DNA of 64,000 bases from Alkalinema sp. CACIAM 70d (GTDB taxonomy: Bacteria; Cyanobacteriota; Cyanobacteriia; Leptolyngbyales; Leptolyngbyaceae): positions 1 to 64,000 of the forward strand of contig MUGG01000034.1 of assembly GCA_002148405.1 (NCBI GenBank). The letters run 5' to 3'. Positions 41,955 to 59,244 of the stretch are shown here, piece after piece; positions within the stretch are counted from its first letter, which is position 1, and every line of letters starts with the position of its first letter. A program made the translations under genes and the position numbers. The notes under the pieces are model-generated. The model was not told where the DNA came from and ran no database searches. It saw nothing but the letters and a program-made list of their open reading frames with translations.

Positions 41955-43277
41955 GGGGTTTGCAAATAAATAAGACACCGGGGATTCTAGAAGGTAATGG
42001 AGCAGAATGATGGGATCGTTTGCCCAGACTCTTGAGAAAAGGATGCCCTAAACCATGCTCAATGAGACGATTAAAGCAACTCTCAAAGATGCCGCCCGGA
42101 AGCTGACTGGCTCCAAGAAGCGAGACTTTATCGCAAAAGTGGCTGAAGACTATTTTGCGGGGTCAGCGCGGGAAACAGAAACGGTATTAGGGTGGAATCG
42201 AGAGGCTGTACAACTAGGGTTGCATGAACGGCGCAGTGGGATAGTCTGTGTCGAACACTATCAAGCCAGAGGACGGCGTAAAAGTGAAGTGGTGTTGGCA
42301 AATTTAGAAGCCGATATTGCCAGTTTGGTGGATGGGCAAGCCTAAGCAGATCCGAAATTTCAATCGACCTTTTTGTATGCGCGCATCAGTGCTCGAGCCG
42401 TGCGAGAAGCCTTGATCGAGGAGAAGGGCTACGACGAGACCGAGCTGCCTTCACGTCAGACGATTGGGGCCATCCTCAATCGCATGGGGTATCGCCTAAA
42501 AAAACACAAAAAGTCAAACCGTTGAAAAAGATTGCCCAAACCGATGCTATTTTTGACAATGTTGCGCAGGAAAATCAACGGACTGATGCCAATCCGCAAG
42601 TGTTGAGGCTCTCGATTGACACAAAAGTCAAAGTCAAGATTGGCAATTTGTCGCGCAATGGTAAGGATCGCAGTTTAGAAGCCAAACAAGCGGACGACCA
42701 TGATACTGAATGGCAATCGGTATTGGTGCCTTTTGGCATTCTCAATCTTGATAACGATGAGCTGTCGATTTACTTCGGTCAATCCGCTGAAACCAGTGAT
42801 TGTATTGTCGATTGTTTGGCCTGGTGGTGGCAGGACAATCCAGTTGATTACACTGAGATTGAGGCGTGGGTGATTAATCTAGATAGCGGATCTGCAACTC
42901 GCAGCGATCGTACCCAGTTCATTAAACGCATGGTTGAATTGGCTCAACGGATCGACCGACCCATTCGATTAATTTACTATCCGCCTTACCACAGCAAATA
43001 CAATGCCATTGAGCGATGCTGGGCGGCCCTTGAGAATTACTGGAATGGAGCGATCTTAGATTCGGTCGAAGCCGCCGTTCAATGGGCCACGAATATGACC
43101 TGGAAAGCTGTTGCTCCAGTGGTTTATCTGGTGGAGGGCCTCTATGAAAAGGGCGTTCAGGTGTTCGCTGAGGAATTAGAATCCGATCTCCCGTTCTGGC
43201 AACCCTCGGAAACGTTACCCAAATGGGATATCACCATTCTCCCTAATTGACTGGGATGTTATTTACTTGCATGTCCC
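41955..43277. mobile_element. ISAzo13-family insertion sequence, degenerate, with imperfect about 20-bp terminal inverted repeats
   Basis: The left end GGGGTTTGCAAATAAATAAG matches the right end GTTATTTACTTGCATGTCCC at 15 of 20 positions as a reverse complement. These ends enclose a transposase with the YPPYHSKYNAIERCW DDE-region signature. Confidence 0.45.
42055..43250 (+). pseudogene. ISAzo13-family transposase disrupted by an in-frame TAA (42343-42345) and a -1 frame change at an A7 run (42498-42504)
   Basis: Reading through the TAA continues the same frame as ...ADPKFQSTFLYARISARAVREALIEE...NRMGYRLKK. After A AAA AAA the protein continues in the -1 frame as KKTQKVKPLKKIAQTDAIF... Confidence 0.65.
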
Positions 43278-43455: not shown

Positions 43456-46335
43456 CTATTGGCCGGAATGCACTGCCTTACGAGAAAGATCGTCACAAAA
43501 GGCTCGATCGCGAATGCTATCTGAATTACTTAACGCTTTCGGATTAGTTGTCAAGTAATCATGGAGCCAACTGCAACTGCGATCGAGCAGAGAATCTAAT
43601 TGCAAATTCTGAAGATTCCAAACAAGAATTCGTTTATCATCACTAGCAGAAACAAGTTTTTGCCCATCCGGGCTAAAATCAAGGCCATAGATGCCGCTGC
43701 GGTGCCCATTCAAGCTAGCAATCAAGCGACCATCCAACCGCCACAATTTGATTGAGCGATCGTCGCTGGAAGACGCGATCGTTTTGCCATCGGGACTAAA
43801 GCGCACTGCTAAAACAATCCCTTGATGACCAATTAAGGAGCGCAGAAAAGTCCCATCCCGTTTCCAGAGCTTGATCGTACGATCGTTACTAGCCGAAGCA
43901 ATGATTTGACCATCAGGACTAAAGGCAACATCTCGAATGGTCTGCTGATTATGGGCATTAAAAGTTGTGACCGGGGTTAGTTGTTTTTTTAGGAATCTAT
44001 CCATGCTCCATAGTTGAATTTCTCCCTTCTGAGTGCCTAGAATAAGCAACTGACTATCGGGGCTAAAGTTCAGATTGTCTAACCGACTGCTGGAAGTTTT
44101 TACCTGAGCGATCGGTGTTCCATCAACTTGCCAGACATACAGCCTTCCATCTGTATCTCCCGCAGCAATCCATTGACCATTGGGACTAAATTGAACTCGA
44201 TGGATGATGCCATTGGTAGAAATGCGTTGTTTCTCTTTACCATTCCAATCCCATATAATAATGTAGGAATCGGCTCCAGCGGATGCAAAGTACTTGCCAT
44301 CAGGACTCACGCTGACACTATAAATTTGATTCTCGTGTCCTTCTAAGATTTGCTGTAAATCCCCATTTGGCGACCACAGGTGGAGGGTTTTATCACTACT
44401 ACCCGAAATGATTTTCCGACCATCGGAGCTGAAGCTAACAGCATTCACAGGCTCTTTGTGGCCAATGAGGGGTGAAAGAATACTGCGATCGAATCGCCAA
44501 AGCTTTAAAGTGGTATCTTGGCTGGCAGAGGCGAGGAGTAACTGGTTACGATCGGGGGCAAAGCTCACCCCGTTAATCATGTCACTGTGTCCCTTGAGCG
44601 ACTCCAGAAAGGTACCATCCTGCCAGCGCCAGAGGTCAATCACTTTATCCGCACTGGCCGTAGCGAGAATGCGACCATCGGGACTGAAGGCGAGGCCATA
44701 GAGGGGGCGATCGGCGCGTTCGGGGTCGGGTTGAAAAAACTGGCGCAATAGTTTACCCGTCCGATGATCCCAAAGGGAAATCTTGCCCTTAATATCAACC
44801 GCAGCGATCGTGCGACCATCGGGGCTGAATTTCACCTGGGTAATGAGATCCTTTGCGCCCTTTAATTGCTTCAGAACTTTGCCATTGATTGTCCAGAGGC
44901 GCACGACTTTATCTTCGCCAGCGGAAGCCATCAGGGTGCCATCGGGACTGGGCGCTAAGCTGTAAATGGGCTTGGGATGTTGGCGTAGGATAACGCCCGG
45001 TTTGCCCTCGATCGACCATTTGCGAATCGTGCCGTCTTCCCCCGCTGACCACAGGGATTGTCCATCTTGACTAAAGAAGACACTGTTCACGGCTCCTTTA
45101 TGACCAGATAGGACGGGGCCAGGGGTGCCATCGCGCTGCCACAGCCGCACGGTACCATCTTTACTGGCAGAGGCAAGCTGCTGACCATTAGGGCTAAAAC
45201 TGACAAAAAAGACGCCATCTTGATGACCTTCTAGGGTGGCGATTGGTTGGCCGTTCAACTGCCACAGCCGCACGGTTTTATCGCCACTGGTAGACGCCAA
45301 AATTTGACCATCAGGGCTGAACTCTACTCCTGCAACCCAATCCTTGTGGCCTTCCAATCGGTTGGATTCCATGACCCAATAGGCTGCTTGCAGGGCTGTA
45401 TCCGTAATTTTTTGTTGCGTCTCTGCATCGGCCCAAGTTGCTTGTTTCAAGAGCCGACTGGCCCGCAAACTTTGGATTAAGGCATCAAAGATATTATTTT
45501 CCTTAAACAGCGCTTCAGAAAAGGCTCCCAAGGTTTTGATTTCATTCACTGCGGCCATTTGATACTGTCGATAGGCAAAAAAGCCCAATCCACTGGCAAT
45601 CACAAAGGCGATCGTCATGGTACCCAGCAGCGTCCGTTGCAGCCGAATTAGCGATCGCTGCTGTGCCCGTTCAGTACGGCGACTGGTGTCGATATATTGC
45701 AGTTGCAGCGTATTGGGTTCGGGCTGTTTAGTCGCGCCTTCAATGCACCATTGCTCTGCTCGTTCTAAATCCGTGCCCCGCAGCAAAAAGCTTTCATCCT
45801 TGCCATGATTCTGCCATTCCTGGGCGCGGAGTAATAGCCGCGTGTGGGCTCGCACGTGCGGTAAATCTGTATCTAGAGCCTCTGCTAATTTGGCAAAGGA
45901 CTCATCCCAATTGTCCTCAGGTCGAAAAAAAATCCAATTTAAATCCGCTAGGTTTTTGGGTGTATCTTTGGGATTGACGTTTTCACAGACGATCGGAATT
46001 AAACGCTTATTCATTTTAAGCGCTGCTTCATACTCCACCCGGCATTCATAGGACGCTAGGTATTCCGGACTCAGCACGGCAATGAAACTATCCGCTGCGG
46101 AAATCCCTCGATGAATTTCAGCCCGCCAATTAACGCTGGGAGGAATGTCAGCCCAATCAATCCAAATGTTGCGCTGTTGTTTTTGTAGATCTTGATAGAA
46201 TCTTTGAATGAACTCAAGATTGCGCCGACAGTAGGAAATGAAAAGATCGAATTGACTATCAGGAAGTTGATTGGAGTCATCCTCAGTTGGTGGCTGGGAC
46301 GGGGGGCGATCGGAAGAATGCTCGGAGTTACGCAT
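43456..46335 (-). CDS. TIR domain - transmembrane helix - WD40 (about 14 repeats) protein
   Basis: The N-terminal TIR reads DLFISYCRRNLEF...SFIAVLSPEYLASYECRVEYEAA, with a conserved Glu in CRVE. One predicted TM helix (IAFVIASGLGFFAY) and many GH...WD/WR repeats follow. The track start at 46347 is TTG, and the ATG is at 46335. Confidence 0.85.
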   Translation of the reverse strand: MRNSEHSSDRPPSQPPTEDDSNQLPDSQFDLFISYCRRNLEFIQRFYQDLQKQQRNIWIDWADIPPSVNWRAEIHRGISAADSFIAVLSPEYLASYECRVEYEAALKMNKRLIPIVCENVNPKDTPKNLADLNWIFFRPEDNWDESFAKLAEALDTDLPHVRAHTRLLLRAQEWQNHGKDESFLLRGTDLERAEQWCIEGATKQPEPNTLQLQYIDTSRRTERAQQRSLIRLQRTLLGTMTIAFVIASGLGFFAYRQYQMAAVNEIKTLGAFSEALFKENNIFDALIQSLRASRLLKQATWADAETQQKITDTALQAAYWVMESNRLEGHKDWVAGVEFSPDGQILASTSGDKTVRLWQLNGQPIATLEGHQDGVFFVSFSPNGQQLASASKDGTVRLWQRDGTPGPVLSGHKGAVNSVFFSQDGQSLWSAGEDGTIRKWSIEGKPGVILRQHPKPIYSLAPSPDGTLMASAGEDKVVRLWTINGKVLKQLKGAKDLITQVKFSPDGRTIAAVDIKGKISLWDHRTGKLLRQFFQPDPERADRPLYGLAFSPDGRILATASADKVIDLWRWQDGTFLESLKGHSDMINGVSFAPDRNQLLLASASQDTTLKLWRFDRSILSPLIGHKEPVNAVSFSSDGRKIISGSSDKTLHLWSPNGDLQQILEGHENQIYSVSVSPDGKYFASAGADSYIIIWDWNGKEKQRISTNGIIHRVQFSPNGQWIAAGDTDGRLYVWQVDGTPIAQVKTSSSRLDNLNFSPDSQLLILGTQKGEIQLWSMDRFLKKQLTPVTTFNAHNQQTIRDVAFSPDGQIIASASNDRTIKLWKRDGTFLRSLIGHQGIVLAVRFSPDGKTIASSSDDRSIKLWRLDGRLIASLNGHRSGIYGLDFSPDGQKLVSASDDKRILVWNLQNLQLDSLLDRSCSWLHDYLTTNPKALSNSDSIRDRAFCDDLSRKAVHSGQ

Positions 46336-46459
46336 AGAACACAGCAATCAAGAACATAGCAATCAAACCTAGGAACAGCAGAAATTACGTCATAATGGAA
46401 TGCTGGATCGTGGGGAATTTTAGGTTAAAAGATGGTCTAGATTCCTAGAATGTTTTTTC

Positions 46460-47977
46460 CTAGGGTTTATTCTTGGGGGGCTTGATTTTGGGATTAGACG
46501 TTTCTCCCAGGCTTATCATTTTGGCTTGTTCTTCCGCAGGAATGCCGAGATTATTGGTTTCCATCCATTTTGCATCCAGCAACGTCCACCAATCGCTGCA
46601 TAATTGATTCTGCTTGTCGGCTTTGAGGATGTAGTCGTAGGGCAACCAGCCAAACCCTTGTTCGCCCCAGTCATCTCCCCAGGAATTTTTAAAGAGAATG
46701 GCTCCAGGGCTGTGATTGGGAATGGTGTGGTTGTCGTCGTAGCCGATCGCTAAAGCCGCGTGACCTTGGATAAAAAGATCGGTTTGGAAGTCGGGGATTT
46801 CGTCAGGTAAAGCAATGTCTCCCGTGGCTTTGGAGTCAGCATATAGGGTGTCGCTCAGGACGCGGAATCCAAAAATAGCCGGGAATCCGCCGAGGAGGGC
46901 GGCTTTGATTTGGGCCAAGAGGGCGGGCTGGGTCATATCAGGCCGATCGAGGCGGAAGTAACGCAGGGTTTGGTAGCTTTGGGCGTAGGCGTAGCAAAAG
47001 GCCGGGGGATCGCTCAACAGGTTGTCTGGGTTGAGGGTTTGGTCGAGATCGCGGTTTTCTGGGGTGGGGCGTTGCCATTGCCAATATTTTTCTGGGGGTA
47101 ATCCAAAAATCATCATGGCTTTGAGGGTCGATCGTAGGGACGCACCTTTATCTTCATCCTGGGTGCCATCGATCAAGCGGGTGATGCGATAGAGAAAGCG
47201 ACTGGAAAAACGGCTATCGTCGGGGCCATTGCCTTGGCCTTGGCTGTAGCGGGAGGCGAAGTATTCCATGAGGGCGATGCCTGCGTGGGCCGTGCAGGCT
47301 TTGTAGCCATGATCCGCTTGATTTTCGATGCGGTGGCAATGCTTTTTAAGTTCTAAGAACTTAGCTGGGAACGGTATCTCAAGGTTATCTTGTAGCAGTG
47401 CTTCTAATTGCTGTAGGGTACCCCTTAGGAGAAGATAAATTTGCTGGGGATCGGGGGTGGAGTGGGTGGCGGTCTGATTAATTTCGGCGGGTTGTAATTG
47501 AATGACGGTAGAGACTGGCGAGGGGGTTGGGGCGTTGGGGCTGGCTGGCAATTGGGGGGAAAGGACTTTTGCAGGTACCAGTCTGGCTGGCACCATGGTT
47601 AGGAGGGTGATATCGTTGTCTGGGGTGAGTTTTTGCAGGATTTCTAACGTATTTCCCAGGGATTGCCGGGAGGAGAGCTCTGTTTTTTGACTGTCTAAGG
47701 ACTTACTGTGATTAGGGTTAAGGCGATCGAGTAGGGTTGGGACAAATTTTACGAGTTTCTGCCAGTTATCATCTTGAGAGGAGGAATTAGGTTGATTATC
47801 GATGGGTAAATAGCTAATCAGTTCATTTAACCAATTAATGAGTTCCTGGGTGACTTGGATCACTCGTCGATCGGATTGACTATGGATCAATAACTGCTGA
47901 ATTAGTTGATTATTGAGGGTAAAGTCCCTGTCGTCTTGCTGATCGGGAATCCAACCGGTTTGGATTGAGCTATCCAT
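46460..47977 (-). CDS. Papain-like (C1 family) cysteine peptidase homolog with a long N-terminal extension
   Basis: The putative Cys motif is GYKACTAHAGIALMEYF. The C-terminal His/Asn-Trp region reads QGHAALAIGYDDN...FKNSWGDDWGEQGFGWLPYDY, resembling a C1 His...N-S-W-G core. Confidence 0.45.
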   Translation of the reverse strand: MDSSIQTGWIPDQQDDRDFTLNNQLIQQLLIHSQSDRRVIQVTQELINWLNELISYLPIDNQPNSSSQDDNWQKLVKFVPTLLDRLNPNHSKSLDSQKTELSSRQSLGNTLEILQKLTPDNDITLLTMVPARLVPAKVLSPQLPASPNAPTPSPVSTVIQLQPAEINQTATHSTPDPQQIYLLLRGTLQQLEALLQDNLEIPFPAKFLELKKHCHRIENQADHGYKACTAHAGIALMEYFASRYSQGQGNGPDDSRFSSRFLYRITRLIDGTQDEDKGASLRSTLKAMMIFGLPPEKYWQWQRPTPENRDLDQTLNPDNLLSDPPAFCYAYAQSYQTLRYFRLDRPDMTQPALLAQIKAALLGGFPAIFGFRVLSDTLYADSKATGDIALPDEIPDFQTDLFIQGHAALAIGYDDNHTIPNHSPGAILFKNSWGDDWGEQGFGWLPYDYILKADKQNQLCSDWWTLLDAKWMETNNLGIPAEEQAKMISLGETSNPKIKPPKNKP

Positions 47978-48589
47978 AAATGATCTCCTAGCATCCTGAC
48001 GAGATGGTTTAAAAACGGGGGCGATTTTGGTAAGGGGGTACTGTAGATTGTGCCGAATTTGTGGGCACTGTCGATAAAAACAAAGGGATTATTCATAATT
48101 CCTGATGGTTTTTCGGAGCTTGAGTGCTGGATAGATGCAGAGATTCTCAGATCACCCGATCGGGTGGGAAGGCGTAGGGGGTCGGTGCCTGTGTCCATGT
48201 TGATTGTAGAAGGATGATTACTGCGGATAAAATCCCTCGATCGTAGTGCTCGGGTTCATGAGTACTGTAGTATTTTGACAATAGCCAGCCATTGTTGATT
48301 AGATACGATCGAGGTATTAGGCAACTAGCTGATGTTTGATGAAGTGAATGTATTACAAGAGCGATTTGTACTTCTGTTTCCTAAGCATTGAGGCTACCGT
48401 GTACACACAAGTCGATCTCAGGCTCGTTTTCCAAAAACTTTACCCTCTAAAACCTTGATTTCTCGTTGCCAATTCTCAACAACCTAAAAGTATTGAGAAT
48501 CAAGTCGTTTTCCGAAATTGAGGCTGGGCAAGGGTTTCAGAACTTGTGATCACAGATTTCAGAGATGCGTGTACACCGTAGAAGCATTA

Positions 48590-48814: not shown

Positions 48815-49618
48815 TCAAAACCCCCGTTCCCTTTCCCATGATGCAAGCGCTGCCAATAAAATAGATTTGCGTTCCAAGATCACTCCCGATAAAATATCTC
48901 CCTCAAGAATCGTCTGGATAAACTCTAATTCATTTTCATTAAGTGCGTTACGAATTGCGAGCTGCGCTATCGCTTCAATCCGATCACTGCCATTCGTGGT
49001 TCGATAGATCTCGTGAAGCGCACACTCTGCACTCACATCCTGTGATGCACCAATTGCTAGCACTAACTCACGGCGCACTCTTTCTGCAAGATTGCTATTA
49101 CGGGAAAGCCAGAGCAATTGCTCAATCAGTGGAGAACTTTGGCCGCTGGGAGTTTCGCGCAAAACGGCAGCAGCAGCAGCAACCCACGCGCTTTCCCAGT
49201 CGGTGGTCATAGTATGATCAGGGCGTATAGAAGCTACCAGAAGACCATCCTCTGGTGTCGCAACCTTGCTCAGTATCCGAAGTGCAACAATATGTGATGC
49301 GTCAGGGATGGGTTGCCCATTCCAATGGTTTTGTCCATCAATTCCATCAATTTGCAACAGGGCAATCGCTGCCTTCCTCATGTAATCCCGCTGCAACGTT
49401 ATGCGATCGCCCATACGAGATGTGGCTTGTTCTTGAATTACCAGATCGAGCGCAAGTGCCAGAATAAGACGGTTATTCTCTTCAAAAAGGGATTCCCACG
49501 CTGACCGTTGAGTTGCTGCATCTGGTTCGAGGGTTTGGAATAGACGATCGCGCAATGAATCATTGAGATCGATCCAGGTGCCAGCGAAGTACAGAAATGG
49601 ATCTATGGGTGGTGGCAT
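48815..49618 (-). CDS. Hypothetical helical-repeat protein immediately downstream of the DUF4157 effector gene (candidate immunity or chaperone protein)
   Basis: ATG at 49618 sits 6 nt after AGGAGGG and 13 nt after the effector stop. The ORF-track version (to 49921) overlaps the effector gene by 290 nt and is rejected. The protein is alpha-helical and Ala/Leu-rich. Confidence 0.55.
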   Translation of the reverse strand: MPPPIDPFLYFAGTWIDLNDSLRDRLFQTLEPDAATQRSAWESLFEENNRLILALALDLVIQEQATSRMGDRITLQRDYMRKAAIALLQIDGIDGQNHWNGQPIPDASHIVALRILSKVATPEDGLLVASIRPDHTMTTDWESAWVAAAAAVLRETPSGQSSPLIEQLLWLSRNSNLAERVRRELVLAIGASQDVSAECALHEIYRTTNGSDRIEAIAQLAIRNALNENELEFIQTILEGDILSGVILERKSILLAALASWERERGF

Positions 49619-49631
49619 GAAACCCTCCTGT

Positions 49632-52600
49632 TTAATACGGATCATCTCGTGGAGGACGTGTTGGTGCATCCAGGAAGCGGACGGCATCGAATGGGATATC
49701 GCCTCGAATGAGAACCTCCATAGTGCGAAGTGTATCTCGCATTGCCTGCTCCTGAACAGGTGGCGCGCTTTCTGCAAAAATCCCCCAATGCTGCTGTGAT
49801 ACACGAGTACTGAGGTCGAAGATGTTGGATGATGAGATGCGGAATAAATTAATTTCGACTCGACCAGAGGTAGGACTGAAAAAGCGACGGTACTCTCCAG
49901 TTCTGCGATCGCGCGTGCCACTGCGCATGTGTTCAGTGCGGGGTACTCTACTTGTCGAGGTATAGCTGGAGTCAGCCCCCTCTACATGTTCCAATAGCGA
50001 GGCGGAAGACCCTGGTGAAACAGGTTCAATTCCTTGTCCTCGCCGGAGACGACGAGCATCCGTCTCGTTAAGATCGCGAATGACACGAGGCCCAAGATAC
50101 GCCCCGCGTGCATCCTTCACAACAATCATCCTGGTACGAATGTGACGTGCCACGTTGGCTCGACCCCTGGGATCAGGATTGGCAATGTCCACAAAGCCTT
50201 CATTGGGTGGGATAATTCTACCGACAAGAACGACACGCGGTGGAACCTCAGCAAGATGCACGCGAACCTCTCCTCGTCCCCCACTGCCCAACACTTCCAG
50301 ACGTGAACCTGTGGGAATTCCGGTGATGCTCCGGAATGCTGTATCAAGAATGACTCTAACTTGATCGATCGTATCCTCCCGGCGAAGTAAACGTAGTTGT
50401 GTACGTGATGCTTGTAAGAGGCGATCTGCAATCCAACGTTCGGCTCCCGGTTCTCGACGACCTGGCAAATCGAACATCATCTCCGGATTCACGGCTGCCA
50501 AAATGGTGATTGTGGTACCGGCTTCACGGGTTACGCTGAGTGTTGTCAGACGATATCGTCGCTTAATCAGGAGTAGCATAGGCACCAGCAACACTCGCGA
50601 TCTCCTTGCCGGATCAATCCTCCGAACTTCGGTAACAGCAGCATGTAAATCGGCTGCTTTCTCTGCGGGGGTGCGACGATCTGGCCCGCCAGAAACTGCG
50701 CTAACCACCAGCCGCCCCAGCCGTCGGGCCTGGGCCACAATCCAGTCCACTACTCGGTCTAAGGCCCGATCGATCGGTGCGCGAACACGGTTGATAATGT
50801 TGGTCACTGCATCACTGACCCGGCCTAAACCTGCAATTCTGGCTAGGAAACTAATCACTAGCGTTAACAATCCCGCCATCGTCGTTTCTACACGATTGGC
50901 AGCGGCAGTGAGAACCCCACTCGCGATCGCGCTAACAGAATCAATAAACGCCATCGCCACTTGAGCAATTTGCCGCAACCGTTCTACAAAGAACATAATC
51001 GTGTTGTAGGTGGCGATAATCGCTTGGATAAAGGCTCCCGCTGGATTGAGACTTGTGATCAGGCGTGTAATCGCTGCTTGCACGACCCGATCGCGTACAA
51101 AGGTCATAATTTGCTCCATGACCATATCCCGCAGATTCGAGAGGCTCTCTTGAATTTTTTCCCAGGCCGCCGCAGGGCCTTGGGTCACTAAGGTCATGAC
51201 AATATCAAAACCCGTTTCCAATGCCTGCACTGCGGGTTCGCCAATCACCCGGACTAATTTCTGACGAATATTTTGCCAAGTCAGGCCCAACACACTTAGG
51301 ACAAACTTGATGATTTCCCGCAAGGTAAATGCTTGGGGAATATAAATATTGGCCCCACTCATTGCCCCTGTGAGCCATCCAATTAACGAGCCGCGTAAAT
51401 GGGTCAGGAAATTGGTGGCAAACTGGCGGAACCCTTGAATGCCAGCCCGCACTAAGTTCCCCACAAAGCCGATCGGATTTTGGATAATGCTGCGGAAGGC
51501 TCCAGCGGCTCGGCGGATGTAGGGCATTGCCCCAGGAGCCACGACTTCGAAGATAATTTGCAACAGGCTCATCACCTGCTGTCCTGCCCAGGAAATAAAC
51601 TGTCCGACAAAATTTGCAAACACCGTGCCTACCCGGACAAAGGCCCGAGGCAACAGCACAATATCGGCAATTTCCAGCGATTGCAGCGCTTGAATAAACA
51701 ACGTCGGAATTTGCCGCACAAAGCCGAGTAACCCTGCCAACGCTCCCTGGAACCAAGCCCAAGCCCGCGCCACCGCATTGGCCCGCTTCAAGTTGTTCCA
51801 CACTTCTTCCTGGCCGATCAGCTTCATGAAGCCGCCGATCAAGGTATCCGCATTGCGCGGCACGGGATCACCCGTAATGGGATCTTGTCCCAGCACGGCC
51901 TTCAGCAAGTCATAGCCTCGGGTGCCCTCCGCCAAACGGGCCAAAGGACGCAGAATGGCTTCTTTGACAAAGCGAATAATCCCTGTGACTAAATTGCGGC
52001 CAAAACTGATGATGCGATCGATGGGTTCCGTAAAGATGCGTTTAGCCCGATTCCACACGCCCCCCAAATCGAAAATATCCGTCCAACTGAGGGAGTCGAG
52101 GAACTGGTCGATCGCCTGCCGAATCACCGCTCCCGTCATTCCCAGGCTCTGAATTTGTTGCTCAATCCAGGCACCCACTCGATCGAAAACGCCGTAATTA
52201 TCCAGCGCTTGAGTAATCAATCCACCACCGGGTAAAAATTCTACGATCGCCCGCAGAATATTGGCCGCACTGCGTTCCACCCGGCTCATGTTAATGGGGT
52301 TCACCCCCAAAATAATCGTAAACATCCGGAAGCCGGGAATCAGATTGGCCTTATCCGCAAAGTAATCCAGCGCATCACTGAGGCCCAGTCGTTGTACCTG
52401 GACGGGAGCCTGCTGCGTCACCGAAACTGGCGTTACAGAAACCGCTTCGCGGCGCTGAATAGCTGCCCCTTGCTGAATCGTGTGGGTCAATTCGTGGGCG
52501 ATTAATTCTTTGCCTTCCTGGATATCGGGTTTAAATTTGTCCTTGCCAAAAAAGATTTGATTGCCGACGGTGAAGGCTTGGGCGTTGAGTTGGCGATTCA

Positions 52601-53144
52601 GTTTGGCCGAGCGATCACCCGTGTGAATTTTGACCTGGCTAAAATTGGCCTGGAAACGCGGTTCCATAAATCGCCGTACTGTCAGCGGTAAGGGTGCTCC
52701 CGTGGCTGTGCTGGCTTGAATTTCTGCGGCGACATTCGAGGCGACATTGGGTTGACCTTCTGCTTTGCGCTGAATCCGATCGTCTAGATTGCGCTGGGTG
52801 AAAATGCCCGTATTGGCAAAGCGTTGGATATAGGGTGACTGGAGTGATCGTTGAATTTTTTTATCTTTCTCCTTTTCCTCCGGCTTAACTTGGCGAAAAA
52901 CGCTGCCTTTCTCCGTGCGAACGTAGGAAATGGAACTTTCGGGTACCGCCATGCGCATAATTTTCTGCGCGGTACGATCGGCTTCTTTTTCAGCGGGATC
53001 GTGGGGGGAAGAAACCTTCATCGCTGATTGGCACTGCACTTTTGCGGCTGTCGCAACCACCTTCCGCTGAATCCGAGGGGCAGCAGCGGGTTTCGGCTGA
53101 GGGGAGGCCGATCGAGTAGCAGTTTTGTGGCGAGCCGTTTCCAC
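49632..53144 (-). CDS. Large (1,170 aa) DUF4157-domain protein with HExxH motif, a long helical middle region and an Arg-rich C-terminal domain. Putative eCIS-delivered effector/toxin.
   Basis: Residues about 150-260 read GAPLPLTVRRFMEPRFQANFSQVKIHTGDRSAKLNRQLNAQAFTVGNQIFFGKDKF...ELIAHELTHTIQQG. This is the DUF4157 signature, including the HELxHxxQ zinc-peptidase-like motif. The start is GTG, 10 nt after AGGAG. The C-terminal 330 aa are Arg-rich with a YTSTS motif. The gene lies directly downstream of the eCIS ATPase. Confidence 0.75.
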   Translation of the reverse strand: METARHKTATRSASPQPKPAAAPRIQRKVVATAAKVQCQSAMKVSSPHDPAEKEADRTAQKIMRMAVPESSISYVRTEKGSVFRQVKPEEKEKDKKIQRSLQSPYIQRFANTGIFTQRNLDDRIQRKAEGQPNVASNVAAEIQASTATGAPLPLTVRRFMEPRFQANFSQVKIHTGDRSAKLNRQLNAQAFTVGNQIFFGKDKFKPDIQEGKELIAHELTHTIQQGAAIQRREAVSVTPVSVTQQAPVQVQRLGLSDALDYFADKANLIPGFRMFTIILGVNPINMSRVERSAANILRAIVEFLPGGGLITQALDNYGVFDRVGAWIEQQIQSLGMTGAVIRQAIDQFLDSLSWTDIFDLGGVWNRAKRIFTEPIDRIISFGRNLVTGIIRFVKEAILRPLARLAEGTRGYDLLKAVLGQDPITGDPVPRNADTLIGGFMKLIGQEEVWNNLKRANAVARAWAWFQGALAGLLGFVRQIPTLFIQALQSLEIADIVLLPRAFVRVGTVFANFVGQFISWAGQQVMSLLQIIFEVVAPGAMPYIRRAAGAFRSIIQNPIGFVGNLVRAGIQGFRQFATNFLTHLRGSLIGWLTGAMSGANIYIPQAFTLREIIKFVLSVLGLTWQNIRQKLVRVIGEPAVQALETGFDIVMTLVTQGPAAAWEKIQESLSNLRDMVMEQIMTFVRDRVVQAAITRLITSLNPAGAFIQAIIATYNTIMFFVERLRQIAQVAMAFIDSVSAIASGVLTAAANRVETTMAGLLTLVISFLARIAGLGRVSDAVTNIINRVRAPIDRALDRVVDWIVAQARRLGRLVVSAVSGGPDRRTPAEKAADLHAAVTEVRRIDPARRSRVLLVPMLLLIKRRYRLTTLSVTREAGTTITILAAVNPEMMFDLPGRREPGAERWIADRLLQASRTQLRLLRREDTIDQVRVILDTAFRSITGIPTGSRLEVLGSGGRGEVRVHLAEVPPRVVLVGRIIPPNEGFVDIANPDPRGRANVARHIRTRMIVVKDARGAYLGPRVIRDLNETDARRLRRGQGIEPVSPGSSASLLEHVEGADSSYTSTSRVPRTEHMRSGTRDRRTGEYRRFFSPTSGRVEINLFRISSSNIFDLSTRVSQQHWGIFAESAPPVQEQAMRDTLRTMEVLIRGDIPFDAVRFLDAPTRPPRDDPY

Positions 53145-53187
53145 GGATAGGGTACTCCTGAGGGGAATGAGGTTTTGGGAATAAGGG

Positions 53188-54669
53188 TTATAGCGTTCTG
53201 CCTTCTTTGACCAATTCTCGACGTATGCCTTCTTCTAAATCCGTTAATAAAAGAGTATGTTCGTGGCGACTGAGGGCTTTGAGGGAAACGTAGCGCACGA
53301 CATTCATAATCGTGCCCCCCGACAAATCGTATTTTTCTGCAATGCGATGTAGCTCAATTCTATCTTCTAAAACCGCCTTAGGAGAGAAGGCATTTTGCCA
53401 AATTTGTAACCGTTCTGCCGTCTTGGGCATGGGGAAATGCACGATCGATTGAAAGCGGCGAATAAAAGCGTCATCAATGTTAGCTTTGAGGTTAGAGGCT
53501 AAAATAACGACGCCGTTAAAATCCTCAATGCGTTGTAACAAAAAACTAATTTCCTGATTGGCATAGCGATCGTGGGAATCATCCACCTTTGTACGTTTGC
53601 CAAAGAGGGCATCGGCTTCATCAAAGAACAAAATCCATTGTTTATGTTCCGCGAGATCGAAAATTTTCGCTAAGTTTTTTTCAGTTTCACCGATGTATTT
53701 AGAAACAATCATACTGAGATCAATTTTGTAAACATCACAGCCACAATGTTTCCCCAGTAAGCAGGCAGAGAAGGTTTTTCCCGTTCCCGGTGGGCCATAG
53801 AACAGGCTGGTAAAACCCGGTCGGAGGCGATGGTGCATTTCCCACCCTTGCAGCAATTCCTGCCCGTACAAAATCCAATGTTTAATTTCGTCCAACTGCT
53901 CCAAGGTGGAAGCAGGCAAAATTAAATCCTCCCAGTCCAGATGGGTTTCGATTAAACGGGCGGGAAATTCGCTATTAAAATTAGGTTTCCGATCGACGCC
54001 CGTGGTCAAGCGATGCAACCATTCCGGTGACAGCACCAGCGCCCCACTCAGTAACGGTTCCCCCGCCGCCACCGGAGCCAAATGGAGTATTTGCAAGCGG
54101 GCAAACCGTCGATCACCTTCAAATAAACGCATTAAGTCAAATCGGCGAATTAAATCATCTCCCGCTAGGATAAATGCAGCGGTTTCACCGGTGGGAATGA
54201 AGCCGCCATGGTGATTGCCTTGGATGCCTCCGAATTCTGTAAATCCCCGATCGATGGCTTCATTCTTGCTCCACAACACATCTAACAATTGCGGTCGTAC
54301 ATGGGGAATCAACGCCAGAATCAGGACCAACCGTTCTTCCGGCAGTAGTTCAAATTGTCGAATCAATCGCCCATAGGCCGATGGACTTTGGCTGAGATCC
54401 GGGGGTGGCGGGTGATCGGCGGCTGGAATGGGCTGGGAGATGCTTGCTGATGGGTCAGGGGTAAGTTGGAAATATTGATTCAGTCTTGCATTTAAAACAT
54501 CAGCGAACCAATTGAGTTCCTGTTCCAAATCCTGGGCATTTTTATGATTCATCAATTTGGCATTAGCATGCTGTTGAACCCGATCGTCGTGATGGCCATC
54601 TAGGCGATCGGGTGATACTGGATTGTGACTCTGCTGGCTAGAATTCATAGGCTTTAAATCACCGTCCAT
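53188..54669 (-). CDS. AAA+ ATPase, eCIS Afp15/Pvc15-like
   Basis: The C-terminal AAA core reads LFYGPPGTGKTFSACLLG...ILFFDEADALFGKR...VVILASN. The N-terminal about 250 aa are non-ATPase. The start overlaps the upstream gene stop by 16 nt. Confidence 0.8.
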   Translation of the reverse strand: MDGDLKPMNSSQQSHNPVSPDRLDGHHDDRVQQHANAKLMNHKNAQDLEQELNWFADVLNARLNQYFQLTPDPSASISQPIPAADHPPPPDLSQSPSAYGRLIRQFELLPEERLVLILALIPHVRPQLLDVLWSKNEAIDRGFTEFGGIQGNHHGGFIPTGETAAFILAGDDLIRRFDLMRLFEGDRRFARLQILHLAPVAAGEPLLSGALVLSPEWLHRLTTGVDRKPNFNSEFPARLIETHLDWEDLILPASTLEQLDEIKHWILYGQELLQGWEMHHRLRPGFTSLFYGPPGTGKTFSACLLGKHCGCDVYKIDLSMIVSKYIGETEKNLAKIFDLAEHKQWILFFDEADALFGKRTKVDDSHDRYANQEISFLLQRIEDFNGVVILASNLKANIDDAFIRRFQSIVHFPMPKTAERLQIWQNAFSPKAVLEDRIELHRIAEKYDLSGGTIMNVVRYVSLKALSRHEHTLLLTDLEEGIRRELVKEGRTL

Positions 54670-56234
54670 TCTGTATAAAGCGGTTGGGCCATCCAGGGAA
54701 GTTTGATAATACTAATGCTCCAAGGCAGTTGGTTGAGTAGAAGATCAAAGGCTGCTTTTTCCGGTTGTAAATACCAGCCTTGATCGCGTTCCCGAAGTAA
54801 GGCCGATCGCTGTAAAAAGGAGGTTTGTAGACCCTCTACAGATGTGTTTTTTAAGGCACTCCAGTGTTCAATGACCGATTGCAGTAATGTAATGGCTTCG
54901 CTACGATCGCTCACTTGTAGTAATCCTTCTGCAACTAACAGAGGTGTTTCAGGACGTAGCCCCAAAAGAATTTTAATTAACATCAAATCATATTCATAAA
55001 TTCGATCCCGCCCTGTGGCAAGGAAATAGAGTAGGGCCGCTGCGCGGGGGAGGTGCTCACTGAGAATTTCGTTACCTTGGGCGATCGCTAAATGACTGAA
55101 CAGTTGCGGCAAAAAAGGATGGATAATCACCAATCCGGCTTGGGTGACTAACCAGGGGAATGCTGGTGAGGTGGGATTATGAGCAGGGATAGGGGTGGGA
55201 GAGATAGGGGGTGGGAGGGTGATGTTTCTATCAGCCGTTTCCTGGGGAGGTTGTAGGGGGGAAAGCGGCAAGGCTGGACTCTCCTGGGAAAGATGCGGTG
55301 TTGTCGATTCAGATGTTGCGAGATCGCTCCGATCCGTGACTTGAGAATCTCCTGTTACGAAAGGTGAGGTTCGATCGAATGTTAAGGCTGAAGAAAGTGG
55401 GACGGGTAAGGTTGTAATCCAATCGCGGAATTTGGACTGGGAGATTGTAGGTAATGTGCCTCCAACCATCTGTAGAAAATTTGGTAAGGCAATTGAACTT
55501 GGAACTTGCAATCCAATTGATAAGCTAGCGGCAAGATAATGGAGACGTGTAGGACGATCGAGGGAAGAAGATGCGATCGCTAAAATTGCGCTGACCAACG
55601 GAATGACGACAGTTCTACAAGTCTCAGGGACTCCCTCTAGCAACGCTTGGATGAGATGGGGAACATCAGAATCGGGCAGCAATTGCAGCCAGCGGAAATA
55701 GAAGGCGGGAGATTCTGCATAGGTTTGGAGATAGGCGATTATCTGGGACGATCGCGTTGCACATAACTGGCCCAATTCCTGAGCAACGATTTCTGCATTC
55801 GGCTGGGCAGCATACCAAGGCAGAATGCCCGTGCGAAGGTACTGCAACAGACTCTCCCATTGATTGAGATCGGGATTAGATAATTGCCGCTGGGGTGGCG
55901 CGCTATCTATGCCGACTGAGAGTGAGAATTCTGGGTGCTGCGAGGGATCGGCCAATTGTTCCTGGAGGGCTTGGCGTAGACAGTCTGGGAACTCTCGCAC
56001 CAGCCATTCTCCCAAGGATTCGGAGGGTGGCACCTGAAGCCGTAGGTGTAGCTTTGGAATATGTACTAAAGCATCAGGCCCGTAGGCTCGATCGAACACC
56101 TGCTCCAACACAGGAAGCAATATGTTTTGCCAATCTTCTGCTAACTGTTGGCGCACAGCAAACGCATCACTGACGGAGTGAGTCGAAACCTCCCAGCGTA
56201 ATCGCCGAATCCTATGGGAACTCTGCTGATTCAT
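54654..56234 (-). CDS. Putative contractile-injection-system tape measure (Afp14-like) protein
   Basis: It has a strong SD (AAGGAGGTGAA before the ATG). The conserved-looking N-terminus reads HRIRRLRWEVSTHSVSDAFAVRQQLAEDWQNILLPVLEQVFDRAYGPDALVHIPKLHLRL, and the C-terminus reads ...IIKLPWMAQPLYTEW. These flank a Pro/Ser-rich low-complexity middle. The gene sits immediately upstream of the AAA ATPase, as afp14 does. The assignment comes from remembered family patterns and was not verified. Confidence 0.45.
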   Translation of the reverse strand: MNQQSSHRIRRLRWEVSTHSVSDAFAVRQQLAEDWQNILLPVLEQVFDRAYGPDALVHIPKLHLRLQVPPSESLGEWLVREFPDCLRQALQEQLADPSQHPEFSLSVGIDSAPPQRQLSNPDLNQWESLLQYLRTGILPWYAAQPNAEIVAQELGQLCATRSSQIIAYLQTYAESPAFYFRWLQLLPDSDVPHLIQALLEGVPETCRTVVIPLVSAILAIASSSLDRPTRLHYLAASLSIGLQVPSSIALPNFLQMVGGTLPTISQSKFRDWITTLPVPLSSALTFDRTSPFVTGDSQVTDRSDLATSESTTPHLSQESPALPLSPLQPPQETADRNITLPPPISPTPIPAHNPTSPAFPWLVTQAGLVIIHPFLPQLFSHLAIAQGNEILSEHLPRAAALLYFLATGRDRIYEYDLMLIKILLGLRPETPLLVAEGLLQVSDRSEAITLLQSVIEHWSALKNTSVEGLQTSFLQRSALLRERDQGWYLQPEKAAFDLLLNQLPWSISIIKLPWMAQPLYTEWTVI

Positions 56235-56345
56235 TTCACCTCCTTATTTCTTGGAAGTCCCCCTTTTCCTTGGCGTAGCCTCTCCAAAAGAGATAGGGAG
56301 ATTTAGGGGGATCGTTATGTGTTGCGATCATAAATTGATTTTGTA

Positions 56346-59105
56346 TTACCGCAACAAATTGCCCAACGTGACTTTTAGTCCAGTGTTCTTAGTTTGTTTT
56401 TGCAATCCAACCAAATTATCCTGCACCCCCTTCAGCGTATCGGCTTGGGTGATGGATTTCATGCTGTCAGATACGGTCAGCATTGCCTGTAATCCTTCAC
56501 TATTGCCGGATACATCCACTCCAGTGGTGGAAATGTAGTTGGTTGTATCCTGAATCGATCGGGCTAAGAGCACTTCCGCATCCTTCGCCTGCTGTTCAAA
56601 CAATTTACGTTGATCGGCGGGAAGATCGGGCTGCTGGGCTTTTTGTCTGAGAATATCGACCTTTTGGCGATTCAGTTCTGTCTCACTCACCTTGACTCCC
56701 AGTAATGGATCAGCAAAATTTACACCCACTTTGTCCATGGTTCGCTTAGTAATCACATTACTGGTTAACGTAACGGAATCTTGGAAAATCTTGAGATAAT
56801 CCTTCTGAACCACGTCACTCATTAACGTAACAGATTGTTTAAATACATCAAAGTAATTCTTCTGGAGATTTAATTTTTCCTCCCAAATTGGTTCAAATTC
56901 CCGTTTGAATCCAGTAATTTTGTCTGTAAATACAGTGCTGAGTGAAGGGATAACCTTCACACCATTTTCAATAATCCAATCCGGTCGAATCGTGGGTTTC
57001 GTCCAAGTTAAATCCTCGGCTTCTTCTTCCACCACATCCTCCCAGTAGTAGGGCAACATAAAGTCTGCGACTACCGTTTGGCTACTGTCATGCACCAGGA
57101 TAAAGGTTCCTCCCCGCACGACTCCGCCAAAATGCTCGATCGCAGTATGGTCAGCGACAAAATTCTTGAAGAGTAGCTTGTCATCGGCCTTTTCATCCTT
57201 GCGTTTAATCAAATCATCCAGCCAATCCAACCATTGCAGATGAGTTTGACTCAGAATTGAATCGAAGGGTGTGGTAAATTCTGTTTTCACCACATCACTT
57301 AAATTAAATTTGTATTCCCCTGCTGTCCGTAATGTATCGCTCAGATCCGTTTTCCATGAGGCATCTGCCACATAACTGGAATAGCTCCGGTTCAGTTTGG
57401 TGCGACTTGTCGTTACTTTCCCTAAAAGAACATTGTTGCTCTGTTCCGCCGCTTGCCTTAAGGTTGAAGCATTGCTCTCCTGACCCACATTGGCATCCAC
57501 CATTTTCTTGAGCCGATCGCTAAACTTACCCACCTCGTCCAATTGGTGAAACGCATCCCGCCGCAGGACGTAGTGGAAGCGATGCAGATCGGTGTAGCGA
57601 ATTCCCGGCTTCTTGACCACCCGCGATCGCTCACTCCCCAGCAGCACTGTACGCACCGTAAACGGTAAATTCCGGGCCGCAATTTCCTGCTCGATCGCCG
57701 CGATCGCTGCCGTTACAGGTTGCCCCAAGTGCCCCTCAATCCGGAAGAAGGAAAACCGCCCCAGTTGTGTCGTTAGCGGACTGGCTGCGCCCCCTTTGGC
57801 GCGGTAACTGCTGGCATGGTAGGAATAGTTATACTCATCGCGACGACGCTGGTGTAGCTGATAGTTCCAAGCACTGTGGATGGGAAAGCGCCCGTTCGGT
57901 GCGTAGTAATAGGGAATGGCCCGATCTGCGAGGGGCTGATCCTCAAACAGGCTCGGTGTAATGCGAATGGCTGTTCCTGCGGCAGGGACTTGGAAATTCT
58001 CAATCAGCGCATTCAATGTTTGCAACAGGAACTTAGCCTGATTGAGGTGATCGATCGTGGAACTGGTAATGGGCGAGGGATAAAATCCAAACCGATTTAC
58101 TTCCGGATCTTCTCCAGGAATTAAATTACCCAATAGTAAATGCTTTGGGAAACTATCGGGATTAGGACAACACCAAGTTTGATCGTCCCAGAGCCGATCG
58201 CGAAATTGGGTATAGGTTTCCGCGACATCCTTCAGAAAGTCATAGTAATACTGAATTCCAAACGAGTTATTACCGCCAAAAGTGCGATTTCTCAGGTTGT
58301 TGAGCTTTGTAACCCAGGTGGGAGCCGGATCACTGGGAAAGATGTCAGAGATAAACGCTGAACAATTGGGATAAATTTTGCCCAATGCTGCAACTAGTCG
58401 ATCGTGAATGGTATTACAAGTCGTGCGATAACGTTGAGCCAGCTCACTTAAGGTACTGAGATTGGTCGGAATGGTGACTCGATCGACGGTAACGTCATCC
58501 AGTTGTGAAAATGCTTGGTGGGGTGTGGGAATATCTGGCTGTAGGGTTTTGAGAGCGGATTGATCAACTAACAGTAATCGGGGTGTGTTGAGGCGATCTT
58601 TACCTAAATTATCGCAATCGGTGCCAGAACAGAGATCATCATCTTTTTCGTAGCTTTCCATTAACAGCAATGCTACGAGTGTATTTAAACTCGTCCCTGT
58701 AGGAAAACTAAAATCCTTGAGAGAAGTTCCGTCAGGGGTTTCAGGGCTGTGGGGCAGCAATTCATAGACCGTAATCATCGTATTTTCGATGTAGAACGGT
58801 GCATATTTTGGTTTGGAGGCATCGTAGGGCTGGATGCGATCGAACACTGTGTCCTGGGCTAAATACAGCAAATCCCCGTCGGTCGTCAGTCCTACCCCTT
58901 TCGTGACAATGACCTGATTCTCCTGGACTGTAACCCGTAAACCCGCAGCAATGCCGACACCCAAGCCAAATAGCCGCGTCAGCCGCGTTTGATCATCAAA
59001 GTAATCGGAAAGACTGTTGAGCTGTTTTTCCGTCAGAACTTGGTCAGGCTCAAAAACGCTATAGCCTGTGGTAATTTGTTTCAGCAACTGAAGGGTGTCG
59101 GTCAT
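56346..59105 (-). CDS. Hypothetical structural protein of the eCIS-like operon (in the Afp12/Afp13 position), containing internal about 20-aa repeats
   Basis: The ATG at 59105 lies 8 nt after AGGAG. The track ORF, extended to 59225, reads through a 13-nt DNA tandem repeat and is probably not translated. No known motif is recognised. Confidence 0.5.
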   Translation of the reverse strand: MTDTLQLLKQITTGYSVFEPDQVLTEKQLNSLSDYFDDQTRLTRLFGLGVGIAAGLRVTVQENQVIVTKGVGLTTDGDLLYLAQDTVFDRIQPYDASKPKYAPFYIENTMITVYELLPHSPETPDGTSLKDFSFPTGTSLNTLVALLLMESYEKDDDLCSGTDCDNLGKDRLNTPRLLLVDQSALKTLQPDIPTPHQAFSQLDDVTVDRVTIPTNLSTLSELAQRYRTTCNTIHDRLVAALGKIYPNCSAFISDIFPSDPAPTWVTKLNNLRNRTFGGNNSFGIQYYYDFLKDVAETYTQFRDRLWDDQTWCCPNPDSFPKHLLLGNLIPGEDPEVNRFGFYPSPITSSTIDHLNQAKFLLQTLNALIENFQVPAAGTAIRITPSLFEDQPLADRAIPYYYAPNGRFPIHSAWNYQLHQRRRDEYNYSYHASSYRAKGGAASPLTTQLGRFSFFRIEGHLGQPVTAAIAAIEQEIAARNLPFTVRTVLLGSERSRVVKKPGIRYTDLHRFHYVLRRDAFHQLDEVGKFSDRLKKMVDANVGQESNASTLRQAAEQSNNVLLGKVTTSRTKLNRSYSSYVADASWKTDLSDTLRTAGEYKFNLSDVVKTEFTTPFDSILSQTHLQWLDWLDDLIKRKDEKADDKLLFKNFVADHTAIEHFGGVVRGGTFILVHDSSQTVVADFMLPYYWEDVVEEEAEDLTWTKPTIRPDWIIENGVKVIPSLSTVFTDKITGFKREFEPIWEEKLNLQKNYFDVFKQSVTLMSDVVQKDYLKIFQDSVTLTSNVITKRTMDKVGVNFADPLLGVKVSETELNRQKVDILRQKAQQPDLPADQRKLFEQQAKDAEVLLARSIQDTTNYISTTGVDVSGNSEGLQAMLTVSDSMKSITQADTLKGVQDNLVGLQKQTKNTGLKVTLGNLLR

Positions 59106-59134
59106 GGCCATCGCTCCTGTGGATCTGGGGTCTG

Positions 59135-59186
59135 GATCTGTCGTGTGAATCTGTCGTGTGAATCTGTCGTGTGAATCTGTCGTGTT
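59135..59186. repeat. 13-nt tandem repeat x4 (ATCTGTCGTGTGA) in the intergenic region upstream of the 56346..59105 gene
   Basis: Four perfect copies lie between the 868-aa gene stop (59245) and the downstream start. Confidence 0.85.
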
Positions 59187-59244
59187 CGTTTTCCGCTGGG
59201 TCAGGTTCGAATCTTCTCTCAGCAAATGGCAATCTATGGGACGT

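Follow-up and report, generated by a model that had tools for sequence, protein, structure and literature searches.

A probable ADP-ribosyltransferase-fold cargo toxin with a linked putative HEAT-like immunity gene on an exchangeable cassette in Alkalinema sp. CACIAM 70d

Introduction

The DNA considered here is a window of 64,000 nucleotides (positions 1 to 64,000 of contig MUGG01000034.1) from Alkalinema sp. CACIAM 70d, a filamentous cyanobacterium whose genus belongs to the Leptolyngbyaceae, and its subject is the minus-strand gene at 49632..53144, which encodes a DUF4157 protein of 1170 amino acids (aa). This protein is likely to be a polymorphic, modular cargo toxin of a contractile injection system (CIS), with a tip of ADP-ribosyltransferase (ART) fold that is homologous to the Rhs toxin domain RhsF-CT and is encoded, together with a linked HEAT-like immunity protein, on a swappable cassette. 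The product is 100% identical to hypothetical protein B0A82_04145 of the same organism, a metagenome-assembled genome (MAG). A hypothetical protein thereby becomes one half of a testable toxin-immunity pair, for which R1023, H1053, S1063 and E1143 are the predicted catalytic residues. The modules of the gene, and the cassette to which its 3' part belongs, are as follows.

49632..53144, minus strand: whole gene of the candidate modular CIS cargo toxin (open reading frame (ORF) call, GTG start, 1170 aa)
52695..53144, minus strand: N-terminal region, residues 1-150, of basic, hydrophilic, disorder-type composition
52464..52694, minus strand: DUF4157 / eCIS_core domain, residues 151-227 (Pfam PF13699, E 6.1e-30)
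50709..52382, minus strand: conserved hydrophobic all-alpha trunk, residues 255-812 (cross-phylum identity, AlphaFold model)
50481..50708, minus strand: junction (pre-toxin) module, residues 813-888, with which the swapped cassette opens; a small alpha/beta unit whose end reads AAVNPE
50127..50480, minus strand: N-terminal subdomain of the toxin module, residues 889-1006, accompanying the ART core in many family members
49674..50126, minus strand: ART-fold toxin core, residues 1007-1157, with key residues R1023, H1053, S1063-T-S1065, F1088/F1089 and T1141-M-E1143
48815..49618, minus strand: putative cognate immunity gene for a HEAT-like alpha-repeat protein of 267 aa, with its ATG at 49618, 13 nt past the toxin stop codon
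48341..50712, minus strand: exchangeable cassette holding the junction, the toxin domain and the immunity gene, with about 470 bp of 3' flank (blastn breaks against loci L004 and L006)

The C-terminal toxin domain

The C-terminal domain is a divergent ART-fold toxin homologous to RhsF-CT. Scans of residues 821-1170 against Pfam and NCBIfam gave no match even at E 10, and phmmer, run exhaustively over 1.84 billion representative proteins, retrieved only 40 relatives, whose common core corresponds to residues ~1007-1157. Word-index searches with the C-terminal domain or with its alignment returned a single protein each and missed the identical database protein, and the exhaustive HMMER search found 40 relatives; therefore, word-index negatives are unreliable for this domain. 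In eight relatives (P0122, P0123, P0125, P0126 and P0129-P0132) the phmmer alignments extend over the preceding subdomain at residues 889-1006, and the genome locus L007 matches this subdomain at E 6e-48. In an alignment of 24 sequences (A1), V1009, R1023, H1053, D1137, R1140, T1141, E1143 and P1151 are invariant, S1063 of the aromatic-STS motif (Y1061-T-S-T-S1065) is at least 90% conserved, and the catalytic-Glu motif reads as an invariant R-T-x-E-V-L-I (T1141-M-E1143).

When the A1 profile was compared with all PDB sequences, one entry was significant, namely 9ZDM_B, a probable Rhs-family protein (hmmsearch E 1.2e-15, profile positions 35-164 against chain residues 8-119). The match between the toxin domain and this chain was also found by hhalign (98.2% probability, E 2.8e-14) and by pairwise BLASTP (E 1e-8, 24% identity). 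The entry 9ZDM is the complex of RhsF-CT with RhsFi from Chromobacterium violaceum, where RhsF is an antibacterial Rhs toxin delivered by a type VI secretion system (T6SS), and the fold of RhsF-CT is that of an ART, similar to ScARP and EcPltA (bioRxiv 10.64898/2025.12.06.692724). Residues 996-1170 were modelled with AlphaFold2 from A1, and the model reached a predicted local distance difference test (pLDDT) of 87.8 and a predicted template modelling score (pTM) of 0.81; its strands carry R1023 (model residues 25-29), the STS motif (66-70) and E1143 at a strand start (148-152), as in ARTs. The Foldseek search that an earlier note on this DNA had proposed for the C-terminal model was run on these residues, and the top 36 PDB matches, though weak in E-value, are ARTs, among them pertussis toxin S1, EcPltA, cholera toxin, LT, pierisin, DarT, TreX, ScARP and Scabin. 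The order and spacing of R...H...STS...E resemble Arg9, His35 and Glu129 of pertussis toxin (PMC6669713). Some relatives show sub-threshold Pfam similarity to DUF7587 (PF24494, 23.5 bits against a cutoff of 27) or to the Scabin-like family (PF22596, 12.6 against 27); the query itself matches neither at E up to 10. An ART enzyme activity of the domain is probable, on the grounds of fold and conserved residues.

The earlier note, made from the letters alone, had set apart a C-terminal toxin module, which is borne out at about 350 aa, and had taken an aromatic-STS motif as a very weak hint of an ART-like fold, correctly so. It went astray in finding no clear ExE or QxE glutamate after the STS, for a catalytic-Glu motif does follow and escaped notice because it is R-T-x-E-V-L-I rather than Q/E-x-E. 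The idea of an unplaceable, new effector domain gives way to a fold already represented by the structurally solved and toxicity-tested RhsF-CT. The motifs quoted there do occur (RRLRRGQG at 1031-1038, RDRRTGEYRRF at 1078-1088 and SSYTSTSRV at 1059-1067), and arginine makes up 15.6% of residues 831-1170. Arginine richness is no family trait, however: the toxin domain has 15% R and 1% K against 6-9% R and 8-11% K in its relatives. As a functional feature it was rejected, this lineage using Arg where homologues use Lys; the Arg-rich runs lie partly in a lower-confidence loop (~1066-1095), a subfamily-specific insertion.

An exchangeable cassette

The homologues of the full-length protein point to a modular architecture. 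Nearly all of the 2943 homologues found are alike over the N-terminal 810-890 residues and differ beyond them, with similarity stopping at residue ~810-820 or 880-890, and their C-terminal ends bear varied toxin Pfam domains, including Ntox15, PF15541, Endonuclease_NS_2, AHH and bacterial RNase A. The loci compared comprise two metagenomic loci (L001, ENA contig_44521, and L006), those of Sphingomonas (L002), Pseudanabaena (L003), Alkalinema pantanalense (L004), Methylocaldum sp. MU1018 (L024) and Myxococcus (L025), and 17 genome loci (L007-L023). Against A. pantanalense, identity is 94% for residues 1-150 (N-terminal region), 98% for residues 151-227 (DUF4157) and 97% for residues 255-815 (trunk), then falls to 39% for residues 816-888 (junction) and 27% for residues 889-1170 (the remainder). 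The break is also seen in the DNA: blastn against the A. pantanalense locus gives 85% identity over 56297..50713, then no match, then 86% over 48340..47805, and the L006 DNA is 95% identical as far as 50737, beyond which its toxin end is a different one, with an unrelated gene for 193 aa downstream. Since identity breaks off at 50713-50737 and, in A. pantanalense, resumes at 48340, toxin and immunity gene have been swapped as a cassette. The protein from about residue 812 onward is thus an exchangeable unit, consisting of the junction module followed by the toxin domain.

The junction shares no more than 13-39% identity with the other homologues compared, though their trunks are 56-98% identical; its model has a pLDDT of 85-91, and junction-like modules stand ahead of different toxin domains in relatives. 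No orphan toxin or immunity cassettes were found elsewhere in the window by tblastn. At the Methylocaldum locus (L024:10001-14069), where the gene order matches, an Ntox15 toxin end is followed by a GAD-like/Tdi1 immunity gene, as in the T6SS pair Tde1/Tdi1; thus, known T6SS toxin-immunity cassettes are plugged onto the CIS trunk. The exact cassette boundaries could guide payload swapping in engineered CIS particles.

The linked HEAT-like gene

Directly downstream of the toxin gene, 48815..49618 had been suggested as its likely partner, and the comparison of loci upholds this. A homologue of about 255-265 aa stands immediately 3' of the ART toxin domain in 21/21 other loci from four phyla, that is, in L001-L004 and in the 17 genome loci, which were obtained by scanning 185,579 species genomes with a six-sequence alignment and are hosted by Rhodopila, Pseudanabaena, Cylindrospermum, a Kofleriaceae MAG, 12 Streptomyces, Kitasatospora and an Actinomycetota MAG. 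In two of these 17 the immunity gene is fragmented. Their ART core lies at or near the extreme C-terminus of its ORF, which is large (1135-2149 aa) in 15 of the 17 loci, many with DUF4157 or trunk homology, and short in L013 (222 aa, Streptomyces) and L023 (166 aa). Conversely, the HEAT-like homologue is absent where the toxin domain differs, and other toxin ends are followed by other genes: the 193-aa protein in L006, a Tdi1-type protein in L024 and a 152-aa protein in Myxococcus L025. Toxin domain and HEAT-like gene thus co-occur strictly, as is characteristic of a toxin and its cognate immunity protein, and 48815..49618 therefore probably encodes the latter; the linkage is observed, and a blocking mechanism is what it suggests.

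The profile of the immunity family matches alphaRep/HEAT repeat proteins (up to E 6e-20), and 10/14 family members have a Pfam HEAT_2 match. Matches to the MS2 coat protein in one of the searches for similarity to RhsFi were discarded as chance. The pair is commonest in Streptomyces/Kitasatospora, where it ends proteins of roughly 1200-2150 aa, and in loci of these genera (e.g., L010, L012, L014-L017, L019, L021 and L022) a third gene, conserved and about 215-233 aa long, comes after the immunity gene. The Kofleriaceae locus L011 carries two tandem immunity copies.

Trunk, DUF4157 and N-terminal region

The middle of the protein had been described as about 550 aa of helical low-complexity sequence; it is indeed helical, but it is a highly conserved domain rather than low-complexity sequence, being 79-98% identical to homologues of other phyla. 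The trunk is the most conserved of the segments of the CIS locus that were compared across phyla, with 88% identity to Methylocaldum and 84% to Myxococcus, against 74% and 66% for the AAA+ ATPase, 51-64% and 43-53% for the baseplate/fibre-size proteins, and 40% and 31% for the tape-measure protein. It is hydrophobic (grand average of hydropathy (GRAVY) +0.45), and its AlphaFold model is nearly all helix at modest confidence (pLDDT 72, pTM 0.35). Foldseek of this model against the PDB returned noise only (best E 0.43, template modelling (TM) score <0.12) and thus no fold assignment. A Kyte-Doolittle scan found one or two marginal 19-residue peaks (~738 and 764-768) and no clear multi-pass membrane protein. 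A PT-TG Pfam match at residues 410-452 (14.7-16.9 bits against a cutoff of 23.5) fell below threshold and was not used. The trunk may be a conserved carrier module that aids packaging in the tube or passage through the target membrane. The so-called linker of DUF4157 cargo is a strongly constrained domain, which bears on how large toxins are packed and released.

The DUF4157 domain read by the earlier note at about 150-260 is present but narrower: the PF13699 match to residues 151-227 scores 103.7 bits against a cutoff of 22 and covers profile positions 1-77 of 79. The HExxH zinc-binding motif, H217-E-L-T-H221 (window 52482..52496), lies within IAHELTHTIQQG, which corresponds to residues 215-226. 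Ahead of it, residues 1-150 have, by composition alone, a GRAVY of -0.84, 66% disorder-promoting residues and an isoelectric point of 10.2, and a motif KVSSPxDPAEKEAD, conserved in the consensus of 32 homologues, begins at residue 43. In the system AlgoCIS, the DUF4157 proteins Cgo1 and Cgo2 occupy the tube lumen (PMC8894135); deletions in them indicate that the disordered N-terminal region is needed for loading, DUF4157 and the C-terminal part being dispensable, and the AAA+ protein is proposed to unfold the cargo (bioRxiv 10.64898/2026.05.27.728243). By analogy with Cgo1/Cgo2, residues 1-150 are probably the loading sequence, and the HExxH domain would be the usual marker of CIS cargo, with a presumably accessory role. 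The DUF4157-dependent loading previously proposed runs contrary to this, the only direct test available (bioRxiv 10.64898/2026.05.27.728243).

The CIS locus

The genes around the toxin gene that are relevant to its setting are listed below.

61905..63959, minus strand: Baseplate_J protein, farthest upstream of the named CIS genes in the window
59245..61851, minus strand: large protein of 868 aa, with a weak DUF1508 match (E 1.5e-4) and a weak N-terminal TIGR02243 (baseplate assembly) match
56346..59225, minus strand: large protein, between 59245..61851 and the CIS_TMP gene
54654..56234, minus strand: CIS tape-measure protein (Pfam PF19268 CIS_TMP, E 5.9e-94, full-length match)
53188..54669, minus strand: AAA+ ATPase (Afp15/Pvc15/Alg15-type), directly upstream of the toxin gene and the presumed cargo loader (Pfam AAA, E 1.3e-27)
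46460..47977, minus strand: 505-aa protein with a weak C-terminal papain-like Peptidase_C1 match (E 5e-5), the next same-strand gene past the cassette
43456..46347, minus strand: 963-aa protein with 13 WD40 repeats
42522..43250, plus strand: truncated ISAZ013-family DDE transposase of 242 aa, matching profile positions 65-308

On one strand, the order is Baseplate_J, the two large proteins, CIS_TMP, AAA+ and then the DUF4157 toxin gene; this places the latter where the payload of a CIS locus is encoded, as had been claimed from its place after the ATPase. The order CIS_TMP, AAA, DUF4157 gene recurs in five related loci (L003, L004, L006, L024 and L025), and the Sphingomonas locus shares the adjacency of AAA and toxin genes. 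The Methylocaldum counterpart of the 868-aa protein also has a faint DUF1508 match. In the metagenomic locus L001 (L001:5783-12158), the toxin ortholog falls into several overlapping ORFs and the AAA gene is likewise broken, most likely through frameshift errors of long-read assembly and not through gene decay. Promoter and terminator scans around the toxin gene gave matches no more frequent than in shuffled sequence. Just upstream of the gene for the 505-aa Peptidase_C1-like protein, the DNA again becomes similar to the A. pantanalense locus (48340..47805); this protein may be one more effector or may have no relation to the system. The WD40 gene and the truncated transposase probably mark the edge of the CIS island.

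Proposed mechanism and alternative explanations

In the mechanism proposed, the adjacent AAA+ ATPase would recognise the basic, presumably disordered residues 1-150 and feed the protein into the tube lumen, so that trunk and toxin would travel within the tube. After firing, the toxin would bind NAD+ via R1023, H1053, S1063-T-S1065 and the aromatic F1088/F1089, and would use E1143 to transfer ADP-ribose onto its target; in the producer, the HEAT-like protein would bind and block the toxin. The linked immunity gene speaks for a target that is also present in bacteria, which favours interbacterial antagonism or controlled self-killing.

Several points weigh against this scheme. The toxin lacks the canonical Q/E-x-E of the ADP-ribosylating toxin turn-turn (ARTT) motif and has T-x-E instead, with the Thr invariant across the family; the Foldseek E-values of its model are weak (best 9e-3, TM ~0.45); and Tyr1456, which is essential in RhsF, aligns with Phe here (F1089, or F1088 by alignment), the position being Phe or Leu in most family members. 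The authors of the RhsF-CT study themselves state that ART activity remains to be shown (bioRxiv 10.64898/2025.12.06.692724). The immunity protein has no detectable similarity to RhsFi by phmmer and two profile searches, with no 9ZDM chain at E up to 10. Loading of the Alkalinema protein into particles is extrapolated from Cgo1/Cgo2, and the role proposed for the trunk is guesswork. The sheath, tube and spike genes would lie past 64000, outside the 64-kb window, and the CIS assignment rests on the genes within it.

The ART-fold domain might be an NAD+ glycohydrolase that kills by depleting NAD+ (like Tne2, TNT and SPN) instead of transferring ADP-ribose, given that T-x-E removes the Q/E that usually positions the acceptor, that no target is known for any family member and that an immunity protein is needed either way. 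This is doubtful, as the best neighbours in structure and sequence are true transferases (pertussis-like toxins, Scabin, CARDS and TreX) and the R / STS / E arrangement is a transferase signature. Where the machine acts is a separate question. Thirteen of the 17 genome loci with the toxin-immunity pair are from Streptomyces or Kitasatospora. The CIS of Streptomyces has been described as intracellular. The same toxin could accordingly belong to a machine that is cytoplasmic (as in Streptomyces) or thylakoid-anchored (as in Anabaena, with Cis19 and Cis11 extensions as the anchoring features) rather than extracellular. Its site of action could then be the producer itself or kin cells dying under stress, or else predators contacting lysed cells, with the immunity gene timing self-killing. 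The host, a filamentous Leptolyngbyaceae cyanobacterium, would fit, and the only characterised cyanobacterial CIS, that of Anabaena, is thylakoid-anchored, with two putative DUF4157 effectors adjoining its cluster (PMC8894136). We consider this possible, though on balance unlikely: the locus type also occurs in Methylocaldum, Myxococcus and Sphingomonas, all without thylakoids, and cassette swapping with linked immunity is a classic sign of between-strain competition.

The remaining alternatives concern the protein as a whole. It might be mainly a structural or assembly part of the CIS, such as a tube-lumen plug or a membrane-insertion device, whose real function resides in the trunk while the C-terminal domain is a secondary passenger. 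The hydrophobic, all-helical trunk does top the conservation of the locus, with 84-88% where the ATPase has 66-74%, and DUF4157 is given as a core eCIS (extracellular CIS) domain in 13 phyla (PMC8213781). Such a role is nevertheless very unlikely, for AlgoCIS particles assemble without Cgo1/Cgo2, their tubes being merely empty (PMC8894135), and classical toxins, each paired with a fitting immunity gene, make up the C-terminal ends; therefore, toxin delivery is the selected function. That the last 330 aa form a new, unclassified Arg-rich effector domain loaded through DUF4157, as the earlier note held, is highly improbable. The family is rare (40 representatives), residues 821-1170 have no above-threshold Pfam/NCBIfam match, and DUF4157 is statistically the best marker of eCIS toxins (PMC8213781, PMC11297309). 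Yet profile, hhalign and fold searches all lead to the ART superfamily beside RhsF-CT, the arginine richness is lineage-specific codon or amino-acid usage, and Cgo1/Cgo2 are still loaded without DUF4157 but not without the N-terminal region. Compatible with a cargo toxin is a tentative, rather unlikely extension, in which the trunk is an as yet undescribed, dedicated translocation or packaging module that lets the CIS carry interchangeable toxins across the target membrane or keeps them unfolded in the tube and, separately, the invariant T-x-E and the obligatory HEAT-like immunity protein denote a subfamily of ARTs whose acceptor is new, such as a nucleic acid or some conserved protein of bacteria.

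Comparison with known systems

The predicted active site shares its layout with well-known ARTs. As in EcPltA (4Z9D), pertussis toxin S1, CARDS (4TLV), Scabin (5EWK) and TreX (8S2M), strand 1 bears the Arg and strand 2 the aromatic-S-T-S, a later strand begins with the Glu, and the invariant His between Arg and STS parallels His35 of pertussis toxin. Identity with the cholera/pertussis and pierisin/Scabin ARTs and with TreX is only 13-18%, with no above-threshold Pfam match. The cholera/pertussis and pierisin/Scabin groups have Q/E two residues ahead of the catalytic Glu, in contrast to the invariant Thr of the Alkalinema family. Delivery differs as well, being by a CIS for the Alkalinema toxin and by an AB5 or secreted route for the cholera/pertussis and Scabin groups.

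With Cgo1 and Cgo2 of AlgoCIS, the Alkalinema protein has in common its layout and DUF4157: an N-terminal region that is disordered in Cgo1/Cgo2 and of disorder-type composition here, the DUF4157 domain and a variable C-terminal part, encoded beside CIS structural genes and an AAA+ ATPase, with Cgo2 of similar size (1228 aa). The two AlgoCIS proteins have no reported linked immunity gene or ART domain. Tube-lumen location and loading are established for Cgo1/Cgo2, whereas the Alkalinema protein is known here from sequence. More broadly, two papers (Geller et al. 2021, PMC8213781; Danov et al. 2024, PMC11297309) describe eCIS-associated toxins (EATs) as an N-terminal DUF4157, a very long linker and a C-terminal toxin; about half of the predicted EATs carry DUF4157, mostly without an annotated toxin domain, and ADP-ribosyltransferases are among the validated EAT activities. 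Architecture and operon position, as given there, are exactly those of the Alkalinema protein. The Alkalinema toxin thus follows an architecture already described for eCIS toxins (PMC8213781) and is not a new kind of effector. What these papers call a linker is here a discrete trunk domain, the best-conserved segment of the locus, and the parts of them consulted do not name the ART family and HEAT-like immunity partner found in this work.

The closest characterised relative is RhsF-CT, whose toxicity needs R1403, Y1456 and E1497, with a partial contribution of S1445 (bioRxiv 10.64898/2025.12.06.692724). R1403 corresponds to R1023 of the Alkalinema toxin, S1445 to S1063 and E1497 to E1143, and both domains show the same motif order (..V-x-R.., ..EHV.G.., ..ISTT/STS.., aromatic, ..I/V-D-L.., ..EVLI+G.IP). 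In both, the toxin domain occupies the extreme C-terminus of a large delivery protein, with the immunity gene directly downstream. Around this shared core the two diverge: RhsF has D-Q-E where the Alkalinema toxin has T-x-E; the latter has an additional subdomain of about 120 aa (889-1006) and the Arg-rich loop insertion (~1066-1087); and its 267-aa HEAT-like repeat protein stands in place of the dissimilar RhsFi. The scaffold of RhsF is Rhs/FIX for the T6SS; the Alkalinema protein, in which a Pfam scan found no Rhs or FIX domain, has DUF4157 and the trunk as its scaffold, suited to a phage-tail-like CIS. Thus a rare family of ART-like toxins, outside Pfam, is linked across two delivery machines, the Rhs proteins of the T6SS and phage-tail-like injection systems.

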